Of a stretch of DNA of 50,414 nucleotides, positions 1,659-4,130 are shown one piece after another. The position numbers were made by a program, and so were the translations under genes. Positions within the stretch are counted from its first letter, which is position 1, and every line of letters begins with the position of its first letter. The notes beneath the pieces are model-generated. The model was given only the letters and a program-made list of their open reading frames with translations. It ran no database searches and was not told the origin of the DNA. Origin of the DNA: a virus (taxonomy: Duplodnaviria > Heunggongvirae > Uroviricota > Caudoviricetes); IMG/VR virus record IMGVR_UViG_2718217859_000006. The stretch is one strand, 5' to 3'.

Positions 1659-4130
1659 TTAAGAATCAGCCTGACTCGGGATCAGTTTTTGCCAGATAAC
1701 TGAAACGTATTTTGCCTGGTAACGGGCGTCATCAAGTGCATTATGGCGCTCACCTTCGAATGGAATAGCCGTTCTGGCATCGAAGTCTATGGCTTTCCCC
1801 AGCTCAACGATTGTGCGTACATCGCGATCGTTGTAGTAACGCCACGGGCAGGGGATCCCCTGCCGTTCGTATGAACGGCGCAAAATCGTGTTGTCGAAGT
1901 TGGCTCCATTTCCCCAAACCTGAACAAAAAATTCACCGGAGTTTTCGTCGATAAATTCCCGCAATTGTAACAGTGCATCATCTAACGGGATTTCATCGGT
2001 CATAATGGCAGATTGCGCTTCGCGTGATTGCTTAAGCCACCATTTAATGGTGTCCCGATCAATGACTCCGCCAGCAGTTTCCAGATCGATAGTCTTACTA
2101 AATTCCGGTCCCATATCTCCGGTTTGCGGATCGAAAAATATTGCACCTATTGAGATGATCGGGGCATCAGGATTTTTTCCCATGGTTTCAAGGTCGATCA
2201 TTAGATGGTCACACGTCCTGCTGGTGGATGTGATTTCGTGATGACCGTTCACCTTAATTGGGTGATCTGCCGTCTCGCCAGTTTCATTATCGCTATTGTG
2301 ATGCTGATTGCCGCCAGTGTTCTCCTTGTGTGGATGTTCAGCGCCTTCCATTTCCTCCGGATCATCTTCCTGAACTTCAACCTGATACTCTTCATCGAAT
2401 GTTTCTTGGTATGTTGCGTCGCCCATCACCGCGCCACAATCAGGGCAGTTGCCGCCGCCGGTCTGACCGCAGGCGGTGCAGGCTTTTTCCACTTCCTGTT
2501 GCGCCACTGGTTCAGGCTGTTTCGTTTCTGGCTCGTTTTGTAACGCATTTGGACTGTTTTGTTCCGCTTTTTGGTAGTTCCGTTCCGATTCATGCTGGTT
2601 CTGGTTCACAGAATCGCGGGTCTGGATCCCCTTAACCCATTTCGGATCATTCGGGTCACTAATCCCTTCAACAAATTCACCACGTGATGCAGCAAGCAAC
2701 TTATCGGCGTCAGGCTGGCTGATATTGGCTGCCTGCATAATTTTGTTTACTTCGTCAGCGGTAACTTTTATCGGCTCTGGTTGTTCTGAATCTTCAGCGG
2801 TATCTACATTTTGCGGTAAGCCCGTGTATGTGCCATTTTTTCGGGCAAAATATTCTTCTTTTGTGATTTCAGTGGCGCCAGCAGCCAGTGCCTTATCCAG
2901 ACCAGAAAGTTTGTTTGCGCGACCGTATTTTTCTCCGTCCTTATCTGCGAAGAGGAAATAGAACGGCCCCTCACGCTCTACAGATGGTTCAGCTTCCGGC
3001 GCGGTTTCATTTTTTGGGATATCAGATACCTCAGTTTCCACTGCATCAGTTTGTGTTTCTGATGACTGGAGAACATCAACAGTGCCCAGGTCTGTTTCTT
3101 CATTCTCAAACACGCCCTTTGTCGTCAGGTATTCGCAGATATATTTGTTCAGTGCTACGGGATCTTTGTGAATGTCGATCGGACGCTCACGGACAAGGCC
3201 AAAAATAGTTTGGCGGTCGTAGCGAAGGGCATCAGGCTGTTTGCGCATTGATGCCGAGATACGCTTCCAGTCTTCGCGGTCGTTGTCGATAACTTCTTTT
3301 TTTGCCCAGCGATGGATGCTGCCGTCAATGTTTCCGGCATCCACATCACCAGGCCAGAGAGCGTAGGCCAGTTCGTCATCCAGTGTTTTCCATGTCTGCT
3401 TGTATTCGCGATGAATGGCAGCAATGACCGGGCTGATTTTTCCTGTTGAATTTTCAGTGTACTGTTGATTGGCTCTGGCGCGGGCGAGATCAACAACAGA
3501 CGTGTATTTTCCGGTTTCCTTGCGTTCACCTTCGCGACGTTTTTTCCAGATGCGCATCTCTGCCTGAATTTCGGGCCATTTAGCACCAGGAATACATTTA
3601 TGCTTAACCCACCCAATGGCGTGCAACTTAAGCTCCGGATACATGGCGTTAACTTCTGGCATTTTCATCAACGCTTCAACGATATGTCCGTCGAATGTTG
3701 CCATGTCTTCCTGCAACAATTCCTGTGCGCTAATAACCATATCAACGGTGATGTTTTCACATGTGTCGAACTTAACCATGACAGCGTTCTGTACTTCAGG
3801 GGCCAGCTTGTCAAAAGTGACGTTCATCGGATCGGATTCAGTCTCAACCGGGACAAAAGAAGCAGACTCCTCATCCCAGCGGTTTTCCTGCATATATTCA
3901 GCATCCCATGAATCGAGGGCAGGGCGGGGTATGCCAGGTTTATCCTCGCAGACAATAAATTTATAAGCGCAGTCCTGAGCAGCCGGATAATGTTCCAGGA
4001 ACTGCCAGTGAAATTTTGCTCGAGCACGGCGTTCGTCGCCAGCTTCAATGGCTGTGGCTACAGCCACAGCGCCTTCTTCCCTTGTTGCCAGTTCGTCAGG
4101 AATAGCGGCGCAAATAAAGACTTTACTCAT
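1659..4130 (-). CDS. Prophage exonuclease (exodeoxyribonuclease VIII-like), C-terminal DnaQ-like 3'-5' exonuclease domain
   Basis: 823-aa ORF with a GAGGT SD; C-terminal 180 aa carry DEDDh-type motifs ([23 protein letters not shown]). Sits where the IS2-disrupted ydfE fragment lies in K-12 Qin. Confidence 0.85.
   Translation of the reverse strand: [823 protein letters not shown]

Follow-up and report, generated by a model that had tools for sequence, protein, structure and literature searches.

What does an exonuclease of 823 aa do in a prophage in which no annealing protein accompanies it? The question is raised by the viral record IMGVR_UViG_2718217859_000006, a stretch of 50,414 nucleotides (hereafter the window) that carries the complete gene near its integrase end. 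RecE/RecT is the workhorse of recombineering, and we know of no function for the roughly 590-residue N-terminal part of RecE. The sole clue to this part is the boost that it gives to linear-linear recombination (review PMC11611040). As described below, the window protein carries much of that RecE region and a nuclease of a different kind at its end.

The 823-aa gene and its setting

Positions 1659..4130 hold a single intact ORF that starts with ATG (ORF listing; Table 1). The gene is already annotated, so finding it was in itself no surprise: an identical CDS was named 'exonuclease' by PGAP in E. coli AR_0369, a strain that matches the window with 100% identity. It is a real gene and no chance ORF, because full-length copies (coverage of at least 80%) are present in 3536 of the 5426 complete E. 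coli genomes (~65%), and because comparison with the mEp460 allele gives a dN/dS of 0.27 for the whole gene and of 0.04-0.18 for the folded modules, those of the scaffold among them. Full-length copies are also found in viable phages, and a median of 2 places per E. coli genome match the DNA of this gene. The homologues that our full-length search yielded were all 86-94% identical to the window protein, and a scan of viral sequences with a 61-residue block found close relatives only; the diversity described below came from a search of 50% representatives.

Table 1. Features of the exonuclease gene and its surroundings in the window
Feature	Position	Strand	Evidence
Tyrosine integrase	20..1315	-	Pfam + PGAP
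Excisionase, directly downstream of the exonuclease gene	1335..1586	-	Pfam + PGAP
YdfE/RecE-type scaffold with DEDDh exonuclease head, complete 823-aa ORF	1659..4130	-	ORF listing, Pfam, PGAP, genome counts
Predicted DEDDh 3'-5' exonuclease head (PF16473), residues 641-816; D646, E648, D746, H796, D801	1683..2210	-	Pfam, AlphaFold2, Foldseek, DexA alignment
Chi octamer inside the exonuclease gene, conserved in mEp460 and HannyBb	2220..2227	+	
Segment like RecE 452-588, residues 472-622; 78% nt identity to K-12, with a 22-residue motif	2265..2717	-	
Cys4 cluster C551/C554/C562/C565, putative zinc ribbon, common with RecE; low model confidence	2436..2480	-	
Small conserved domain, residues 388-435 (GPFY...GRANK...EEYxARKNG); dN/dS 0.04	2826..2969	-	
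Helical domain YdfE_C, residues 245-345, distantly alignable to RecE 278-340; pLDDT about 95, dN/dS 0.13	3096..3398	-	
Part surviving in K-12 as pseudogene ydfE (gene nt 1-767, residues 1-255)	3364..4130	-	Sequence comparison
N-terminal alpha/beta + helical domain, residues 1-221, YdfE_N on homologues; pLDDT about 90, dN/dS 0.07	3468..4130	-	
ydfD (DUF1482), directly upstream, same operon	4224..4415	-	Pfam + PGAP
dicB, cell-division inhibitor	4412..4600	-	Pfam, NCBIfam, PGAP
DicF small RNA	4775..4826	-	Rfam, 76.7 bits
DicA/CI-like repressor, start of the early-left operon region	6012..6419	-	PGAP

The setting is that of a Qin-type prophage, with the gene placed between ydfD/dicB/DicF and xis/int. 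It is separated by 72 nt from xis and by 93 nt from ydfD, gaps that leave no space for a further gene. On the same strand it follows ydfA, DicF, dicB and ydfD and precedes xis and int, which puts it in the early-left operon and in the recE slot, adjoining xis and int downstream of kil/dicB-type genes. No promoter-like site of its own was found on the strand of the gene. From its position as the last gene before xis/int in a repressor-controlled early-left (dicB-type) operon, it would be expressed on induction or infection.

The earlier note had taken the gene to be the intact version of the one that survives in K-12 as an IS2-disrupted fragment, ydfE. The identification as the intact form stands, the K-12 YdfE translation being identical to the window protein over residues 1-255 and diverging afterwards, but the picture of a simple interruption does not. 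DNA identity to K-12 ydfE ends at gene nt 767, the start of the IS2E remnant, and the K-12 lesion is an IS2-associated deletion that has removed the remainder of the gene, xis and the 5' end of int. Truncated copies are common (K-12, BL21 and 13 of the scanned loci), and dS against the mEp460 allele ranges from 0.05 to 0.70 between modules, a sign of strong mosaicism.

The N-terminal scaffold is related to RecE

The N-terminal 600 aa had been described as acidic and without a recognisable domain. The region is indeed acidic (pI 4.65 for residues 1-630 and 4.64 for the full 823-aa protein), but the second part of this description had to be abandoned. Structure prediction with AlphaFold2 gave three confident folded units within residues 1-435, and the region contains YdfE_N, YdfE_C, the domain at residues 388-435 and a long RecE-homologous stretch. 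YdfE_N (PF27430) and YdfE_C (PF27432) are Pfam assignments precomputed on the homologues 86-94% identical to the window protein, and the domain at residues 388-435 is common to all YdfE_N-type proteins, regardless of the head that they carry. The search for structural relatives of the scaffold gave no informative match.

By BLASTP against K-12 RecE, residues 262-627 are homologous to RecE 278-592 (E=3e-62). The similarity is high between residues 472-622 and RecE 452-588, with 63-87% identity per 30-residue window, the Cys4 motif included; residues 472-622 are mostly predicted to be disordered. The homology stops at about RecE 588, which is the start of the RecE nuclease domain. Consistent with this partial relationship, the NCBIfam RecE equivalog NF007259 scored 281.3 bits vs a cutoff of 1269, aligning residues 246-623 with model positions 271-600 only, and PF06630 (Exonuc_VIII) had no match in the window protein, which has YdfE_N in its place. 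The 823-aa protein is a RecE-family chimera and not a protein unrelated to RecE.

Beyond the homologous middle, the window protein shares with RecE (exonuclease VIII of the Rac prophage, which works with RecT) the early-left slot adjoining xis/int, a near-identical RGEF motif, the Cys4 cluster, an acidic linker and the general plan, in which a nuclease at the C-terminus comes after a long non-catalytic N-terminal part. The two differ in their first 221 residues, which are YdfE_N in the window protein and PF06630 in RecE, in the nuclease, which is of the DEDDh (3'-5') type in the former and of the PD-(D/E)XK (5'-3') type in the latter, and in what follows the gene, since no RecT gene lies behind the window gene.

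The C-terminal head is a DEDDh exonuclease

The suggestion that the C-terminus is a DnaQ/DEDDh and not a PD-(D/E)XK nuclease was borne out. No PD-(D/E)XK domain was detected in the 823-aa protein, either as a match to DUF3799, the Pfam family of this nuclease domain in K-12 RecE, or by BLASTP against RecE 606-866, and the HMM search did not place the C-terminus in a RecE-type fold. What matched was PF16473 (Rv2179c-like), with 226.5 bits (E=2.4e-67; cutoff 27) over residues 642-813 and profile positions 2-177 of 177. The head (residues 641-816) was modelled by AlphaFold2 with a pLDDT of about 96 as an RNase H-like alpha/beta fold, and its top 50 Foldseek matches were all DEDDh enzymes, with DexA, RNase T and Orn/REXO2 as the top PDB matches. 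T4 DexA was the best PDB match both by sequence (E=1.5e-6) and by structure (Foldseek E=5.5e-10), and the catalytic D646, E648, D746, H796 and D801 align with DexA D7, E9, the FDF motif, H186 and the Asp after H186. The active site is catalytically intact, and from its sequence the head is predicted to be a 3'-5' exonuclease.

Three known nucleases help to place this head. With T4 DexA (exonuclease A, PDB 8KEL/8KEN) it shares the DEDDh fold and the catalytic residues, but identity is about 20-28%, the extra loops of DexA are absent, Y766 and A780 stand at the DexA 5hmC positions W152 and D169, and the head, which comes from a temperate phage, is attached to a 640-aa scaffold. The closest stand-alone homologue is gp34 of the Salmonella phage epsilon34, annotated as '3'-5' exoribonuclease' (56% identity over 179 residues, E=9e-72). 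It too lies in the early-left operon of a lambdoid phage, but it is a separate 182-aa protein within a module of Erf-like annealase, SSB, gp34 and Abc2, whereas the head of the window protein is carried on a RecE-type scaffold, with none of those neighbours beside it. In its own phage, gp34 is the DnaQ-type nuclease of a lambdoid recombination module (Zheng et al. 2025). Other stand-alone homologues occur in varied contexts that are not always recombination modules, and we rejected the idea that they are universal members of such modules because their contexts vary. Finally, Rv2179c of Mycobacterium tuberculosis, which gave PF16473 its name, belongs to the same Pfam family as the head, but is a stand-alone bacterial exoribonuclease and is absent among the top 50 Foldseek matches.

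Different heads are joined to the same scaffold

The scaffold also carries ends other than the DEDDh head. In one protein (P0139) it is followed by a PD-(D/E)XK head (Pfam DUF3799, E=1.1e-11), and the next gene encodes a RecT (PF03837, E=2e-36); this assignment to the RecT family came from Pfam, the comparison with K-12 RecT by BLASTP not being significant. Others (P0136, P0152, P0153, P0181 and P0235) end in a Rad52-like head, which was identified through stand-alone homologues annotated as Rad52/Rad22: a profile of the head finds stand-alone 'Rad52/Rad22 family' proteins with E of about 1e-59, and the search of PDB profiles with it found nothing. The loci with Rad52-like heads have Gp157, and one also has Gam. 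A fourth version of the scaffold ends in a short tail only.

The exchange extends to the other end of the protein. Many sister proteins join the N-terminal PF06630 of RecE to a DEDDh head, and the same architecture with a different N-terminal domain, at 30-50% identity, is found in other Enterobacterales. Heads are thus swapped on a common scaffold, each end with its characteristic neighbours. The conservation of the scaffold in front of three or four different C-terminal ends suggests that its job is independent of the head.

Carriers of the DEDDh form lack an annealing partner

In the window we found no annealase, Gam, Abc2, lambda Exo, SSB or Gp157 by PGAP, Pfam, PHROG or tblastn with 11 partner seeds. 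RecT was sought with two tblastn seeds across positions 1-28000 without success, the gene that follows the exonuclease gene being xis. The earlier claim that no RecT/Bet-like gene lies between the exonuclease gene and xis or dicB was confirmed by these sensitive searches and by the narrow flanking gaps, and it holds more widely: no such gene was detected beside the exonuclease gene, in any of the other reading frames of 1600-4200 or elsewhere in the prophage. One ORF of 205 aa (5087-5704) was considered as a cryptic annealase and rejected for lack of evidence, having no Pfam match and PHROG matches only to families without an assigned function. A lambdoid Rec module as defined by Zheng et al. 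2025, with a contiguous annealase and SSB/anti-RecBCD genes, is therefore not present in the window.

The same was observed in other carriers. RecT, Bet, Erf, Rad52-like proteins, Gam, Abc2, lambda Exo and phage SSB were absent by tblastn from 79 of 79 loci in which tblastn recognised the scaffold together with a DEDDh head, a set that includes the window, phage and divergent loci and that is highly redundant, the recovered full-length proteins forming a single cluster at 90% identity and the independent lineages numbering about five. Of the 89 loci scanned as L023-L111, a DEDDh-headed protein of full length is encoded by 60, and at least 4 kb of upstream sequence is available for 50 of these 60. 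These partner genes are likewise absent from the complete mEp460 genome and from the divergent loci L011-L014.

Chi sites are present in the two viable phages that carry the gene: mEp460 has 7 on the top strand and 2 on the bottom strand, and HannyBb has 5 and 2, with none in lambda or P22. This pattern matches a class of phages described as having no Rec module and many Chi sites and as being aided by RecBCD (PMC12315714), although the top-strand counts of 5-7 are slightly under the 8 or more that are typical in that paper. In the same way, mEp460 and HannyBb resemble the 'no Rec module, high Chi' phages of the LLS group (Zheng et al. 2025; Bobay et al. 2013), having neither an annealase nor a RecBCD inhibitor and carrying 7-9 Chi sites, mostly on the top strand. 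They differ in that LLS itself is described as being without any recombination proteins. In Zheng et al. 2025, DnaQ-type nucleases near int are mentioned, explicitly not counted as members of the recombination module and treated as unrelated to recombination, and these authors also note that 3'-5' exonucleases usually inhibit recombination. Phages with this gene and without a recombination module of their own probably rely on host RecBCD/RecA.

Discussion

Our preferred reading, to which we give a probability of about one half, is that the 823-aa protein is a modular RecE-family protein of lambdoid phages that processes DNA ends from the recombination slot and feeds them to host RecBCD/RecA. 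Going beyond what is shown above (how the protein is built, that its active site is intact, where the gene lies in the operon, that partners are absent and that heads are swapped), we infer that DNA is the substrate, that the scaffold has a role of its own and that the protein cooperates with the host pathway. The non-catalytic scaffold consists of YdfE_N, YdfE_C, the small conserved domain, the RecE-type linear motif and the Cys4 cluster, and acidic flexible linkers join it to the DEDDh head, which sits where RecE has its 5'-to-3' PD-(D/E)XK nuclease. We imagine that the scaffold may deliver or tether the head at phage DNA ends or at recombination/replication intermediates, whichever head is attached. 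The DEDDh head could then trim 3' ends: it might, for instance, make 3' overhangs blunt or take off non-homologous 3' tails, and the processed ends might be passed to the host RecBCD/RecA pathway and not to a phage annealing protein. Such a hand-off is suggested by the fact that the phages have Chi sites and neither an annealase nor a RecBCD inhibitor. More tentatively, as a generalisation that we regard as possible but doubtful, the N-terminal region of YdfE and RecE could be a head-independent delivery or tethering module with interchangeable ends (a nuclease, either of the 5'-3' kind and paired with RecT or of the 3'-5' kind, an annealase of the Rad52 type, or no end at all), the DEDDh form being an annealase-independent route that prepares ends for host Chi/RecBCD/RecA.

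The homology of the head to T4 DexA raised the possibility that the protein is an anti-phage nuclease of the 'HREX' type, with which a prophage would protect its lysogen by destroying the 5hmC DNA of T-even phages. Kang et al. 2025 (PMC12153337) report that EcD, a homologue of DexA from E. coli, digests the DNA of T4 and gives cells protection, and that homologues of this kind are most frequent in Escherichia. Our gene is intact in about 65% of the complete E. coli genomes, defective prophages such as that of the window included. We consider this unlikely, however, since the residues that recognise 5hmC are not kept: DexA W152 corresponds to Y766 and D169 to A780 (the latter alignment being less certain, with DexA insertions there), and the 'tetramer' residue D90 of DexA, an Ala in EcD, is kept here as D718. 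Moreover, the published residue numbering of EcD suggests a short stand-alone protein, not an 823-aa fusion, and a gene at the distal end of a repressed early-left operon, without a promoter-like site of its own on its strand and retained by viable phages in their recombination slot, fits poorly with lysogen defence. Somewhat less probable still is an exoribonuclease of the Rv2179c type that acts on RNA during phage development, trimming 3' ends such as those of DicF precursors or degrading host transcripts. The Pfam family with the best match is called '3'-5' exoribonuclease Rv2179c-like', many homologues at NCBI bear the name '3'-5' exoribonuclease', two structural neighbours, RNase T and oligoribonuclease, are enzymes that act on RNA, and the gene is co-transcribed with DicF. 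Yet DexA, the closest relative with a solved structure, is an exonuclease of DNA, RNase T cuts DNA too, the 56%-identical homologue has SSB/Erf on one side and Abc2 on the other within a module for DNA recombination, and the scaffold is shared with heads for DNA recombination (the RecE nuclease and the Rad52-like annealase).

The missing partner could also be supplied in trans, the protein being the nuclease of a two-component-style recombinase whose annealase comes from another prophage (Rac RecT or a lambda-like Bet) or has escaped recognition. The close identity of residues 472-622 to Rac RecE points to frequent exchange with Rac-type prophages, and the median of two matching places per genome also speaks for it. 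We give this little credence, because the part of RecE understood to interact with RecT is the nuclease domain, absent here (review PMC11611040), and because a 3'-5' nuclease leaves 5' tails, the opposite polarity to Exo/Bet and RecE/RecT; in addition, the viable mEp460 and HannyBb propagate without any annealase, and no conserved ORF of annealase size and unknown function lies nearby. A decaying, functionless mosaic, born from illegitimate recombination of a RecE-type gene with a DexA-like gene, would account for the strong mosaicism and for the common truncated copies, but it is very improbable and effectively already ruled out by the conservation data: every folded module is under purifying selection, the catalytic residues are intact, the gene is full-length in thousands of genomes and in viable phages, and the architecture recurs with another N-terminal domain in other Enterobacterales. 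We return, with the odds given above, to the recombination-slot DNA-end processor that works with the host pathway.

These results qualify the recent statement that a large class of lambdoid phages has 'no recombination module', in that the carriers of this gene encode a nuclease in the recombination slot. The shared scaffold with its swapped ends offers concrete constructs with which the job of the scaffold can be tested. If the scaffold is a head-independent delivery module, the long-unexplained N-terminal domain of RecE would gain a testable function, and the lambdoid phages without a Rec module would not be devoid of recombination functions. With the gene present in about two thirds of the complete E. 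coli genomes, whether it aids the phage or defends the host matters for the biology of prophages.

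The exonuclease gene and its truncated copies

The window is a segment of the E. coli chromosome, identical (100%) to strain AR_0369, and a Qin-type defective prophage spans its first part (~1-27 kb). As the earlier note had proposed, the exonuclease gene is full length, a single minus-strand ORF encoding 823 residues, which PGAP names 'exonuclease' or '3'-5' exonuclease'. A full-length copy (coverage at least 80%) was present in 3536 of 5426 complete E. coli genomes. The flanking intergenic gaps are only 72 nt and 93 nt, and there is therefore no room for a hidden gene beside the ORF.

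The K-12 gene ydfE had been described as an IS2-disrupted fragment of this gene, which proved partly correct. Residues 1-255 are identical in ydfE, and DNA identity ends at gene nucleotide 767, the exact start of the annotated IS2E remnant. However, this remnant adjoins a truncated intQ. From the coordinates, the gene in K-12 appears not simply to have been interrupted: a deletion has probably removed its distal 1.7 kb along with xis and the 5' end of int. In the BL21 Qin-type prophage only the first 165 codons remain, almost directly joined to xis, and this truncation is independent of that in K-12.

Coordinates of the exonuclease gene and of other features in the window and compared loci
Feature	Sequence	Position	Strand	Remarks
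Exonuclease, 823-aa single ORF	window	4130 to 1659	-	ORF listing
Excisionase (Pfam DUF1233), then tyrosine integrase	window			downstream of the 823-aa ORF
ydfD (DUF1482), dicB, DicF small RNA	window			upstream of the 823-aa ORF
DicF small RNA	window	4775-4826		Rfam, 76.7 bits
Chi octamer	window	2220-2227	+	inside the exonuclease gene, at the linker/DEDDh domain border; position kept in phages mEp460 and HannyBb
205-aa ORF	window	5087-5704	-	first ~48 residues YdfB-like, rest Cys-rich with no Pfam match; PGAP has only a ydfB pseudogene (5561-5662); annotated in phage HannyBb (PHROG 35040, unknown function)
446-aa ORF	window	8669-10009	+	ISEsa1-family transposase reading through into ydfW; PGAP has a truncated transposase pseudogene and a separate ydfW gene
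cspA-type thermoregulator RNA elements (Rfam RF01766)	window	15468-15860 and 18370-18755	+	upstream of prophage cold-shock genes cspB and cspI
CDS, 'terminase large subunit family'	window	21774-25856	+	4083 nt, roughly twice normal length; probably a deletion fusion in a defective prophage
GntR-family regulator gene	window	40147-41621		split by IS1 insertion; chromosomal part
mEp460 allele of the exonuclease gene	L004	9001-11472		compared with window 1659-4130
IS2E remnant and truncated intQ	K-12 (L002)	1650843-1652708		
Truncated exonuclease gene	BL21 (L006)	6001-6498		
Rad52-headed genes	L009; L010	5650-7986; 7001-9226		

A DEDDh head on a RecE-related scaffold

In the Pfam search, the C-terminal catalytic domain (the head) matched PF16473 (Rv2179c-like 3'-5' exoribonuclease; residues 642-813, E=2.4e-67), with RNase_T as a weak additional match, and no PD-(D/E)XK family matched the protein. 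Residues 641-816 were modelled by AlphaFold2 with a pLDDT of about 96, and the best 50 Foldseek matches in the PDB were all DEDDh enzymes (DexA, RNase T, oligoribonuclease/REXO2, CRN-4 and 3'hExo). The active site is intact: the catalytic residues of T4 DexA (PDB 8KEL/8KEN), the only solved relative found by sequence, whose structure was reported by Kang et al. 2025 (PMC12153337), align with D646, E648, D746, H796 and D801. The earlier assignment of this domain to the DnaQ/DEDDh fold rather than to the nuclease fold of RecE was thus confirmed.

The claim that the N-terminal 600 residues hold no recognisable domain did not survive. Two recent Pfam families, PF27430 and PF27432 (named YdfE_N and YdfE_C by another tool), are present on homologues of the protein, and AlphaFold2 predicted confidently folded units at residues 1-221, 245-345 and 388-435, joined by acidic disordered linkers. 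The NCBIfam RecE model matched residues 246-623 with a score far below the model cutoff, and in BLASTP residues 262-627 aligned with residues 278-592 of K-12 RecE (E=3e-62). Identity reached 63-87% per 30-residue window over residues 472-622 (78% at the DNA level), a stretch that holds a 22-residue motif and a Cys4 cluster. The homology stops at RecE residue about 588, where the autonomous RecE nuclease domain starts (review PMC11611040).

Against the allele of the viable phage mEp460, dN/dS was 0.07, 0.13 and 0.04 for the three folded units and 0.18 for the head, vs 0.5-0.65 for the linkers. Synonymous divergence (dS) between these alleles is as low as 0.05 in the DEDDh head and as high as 0.70 in the small domain (388-437), which indicates recombination breakpoints within the gene.

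One scaffold carries several heads

Among 1.8 billion representative proteins we found 11,745 relatives; many were stand-alone DEDDh proteins roughly 180 aa in length, and others were long proteins that have only parts of the window protein in common with it. Heads are swapped between scaffolds, and the neighbouring genes are listed with each combination.

Head and scaffold combinations among homologues (P handles) of the window protein
Head	Scaffold	Proteins	Neighbours
DEDDh	RecE's own N-terminal domain (PF06630)	P0123, P0126, P0133, P0134, P0137, P0144, P0146, P0157, P0163, phage vB_EcoS-640R1	xis/exc and int only
DEDDh	YdfE_N-type	window protein, P0122	xis and int only
PD-(D/E)XK (DUF3799)	YdfE_N-type	P0139	kilR upstream; overlapping RecT gene downstream (PF03837, E=2e-36)
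Rad52-like annealase (~250 aa)	YdfE_N-type	P0136, P0152, P0153, P0181, P0235	Gp157 downstream; Gam in one locus; no nuclease
None, short ~50-aa tail	YdfE_N-type; PF06630	P0130 (702 aa); P0148 (683 aa)	

The third head type contains the sequence KKSLTDALKKALSLLGFSADVWLGLYD. Pfam Rad52_Rad22 matched all five proteins below threshold, and a profile of this head retrieved ~243-aa stand-alone proteins (E ~1e-59), of which some bear PF04098 or the name 'Rad52/Rad22 family DNA repair protein'; this points to a Rad52-like annealase. Prophages of Pantoea, Erwinia and Pseudescherichia encode such proteins (L009, L010 and L028-L031), with a Sipho_Gp157 gene immediately downstream in every case. The scaffold-annealase fusion may have no earlier description. 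In the headless proteins a conserved tail (LT..Q.LTIAA..GLCANPA) replaces the nuclease or annealase; these proteins may correspond to what Zheng et al. 2025 call 'RecE-2'. A small GPFY...GRANK domain goes with YdfE_N irrespective of the head.

DEDDh-headed loci have no annealing partner

The window and 101 loci were scanned by tblastn with six head/scaffold classifiers and 11 partner seeds (two RecT proteins; lambda Bet, Exo and Gam; a second Gam; epsilon34 Erf, SSB and Abc2; a stand-alone Rad52-family protein; and Gp157). None of the 11 seeds was found in any of the 79 loci with scaffold and DEDDh head, a set that takes in the window and the phage and divergent loci fetched earlier. RecT was detected in both PD-(D/E)XK-headed loci and Gp157 in all six Rad52-headed loci. 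A full-length DEDDh-headed protein was encoded in 60 of the 89 newly fetched loci (L023-L111), 50 of these with 4 kb or more of sequence upstream. The sample is redundant, the full-length proteins forming one cluster at 90% identity. In independent lineages (30-50% identity; L011, L012/13 and L014; precomputed Pfam) the order was likewise repressor, DEDDh-headed protein, exc and int, as it was in phage vB_EcoS-640R1 and in the viable phages mEp460 and HannyBb (complete genomes). The missing partner is the rule for DEDDh-headed loci, not an accident; together with the short flanking gaps, the scan upholds the earlier statement that no RecT/Bet-like gene lies between the exonuclease and xis or dicB.

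The closest stand-alone homologue among those examined, epsilon34 gp34 (56% identity to the head, E=9e-72), sits inside a recombination module (Erf-like annealase, SSB, gp34, Abc2), whereas the window protein has no such neighbours; the contexts of other stand-alone DEDDh homologues were varied. In the catalogue of lambdoid recombination modules by Zheng, Casjens, Davidson, Amundsen and Smith 2025 (PMC12315714), some modules, such as that of epsilon34, have DnaQ-like 3'-5' nucleases, 'sporadic' DnaQ-type nuclease genes near int are not counted as module members, and 68 of 314 phages have many Chi sites and no module, their growth being proposed to depend on RecBCD. Lambda and P22 have no Chi sites, with about 0.85 expected by chance (PMC12315714). 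We counted 7 top-strand and 2 bottom-strand sites in mEp460 (45.9 kb), and 5 and 2 in HannyBb (45.3 kb).

Possible roles of the exonuclease

Our literature search found no paper on YdfE function. Kang et al. took one E. coli protein (EcD) to represent the bacterial homologues of DexA and proposed that these defend against T4 through digestion of 5hmC DNA (PMC12153337). Because the head has Y766 at DexA W152 and A780 at D169, where the alignment is less certain, and retains D90 as D718, it would not qualify as a DexA-type defence nuclease under their sequence criteria. A defence nuclease of the HREX type is an unlikely identity for the protein, the recognition residues being absent from the head and the gene belonging to an operon that is repressed and lacking a promoter-like site of its own. 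An RNA-directed function, which draws mainly on the name of the Pfam family, seems less likely still.

That an annealase is supplied in trans is very improbable, since the nuclease has the wrong polarity and the RecT-binding domain is missing, and selection and conservation make it scarcely credible that the gene is a decaying remnant.

Public databases already contain the gene with its DEDDh annotation and Pfam architecture, and the literature already records both DnaQ-type nucleases close to int and lambdoid phages that lack annealases. We found no description of a DEDDh nuclease on a RecE-family scaffold, or of the same scaffold with alternative heads, each with its own partners. We give a probability of about 0.5 to the reading that DNA ends or recombination intermediates are the targets of the protein in lytic growth, that the scaffold provides a targeting or tethering function independent of the head, and that the 3'-5' head trims 3' ends, which would make Chi-bearing phage DNA usable by the host RecBCD/RecA.
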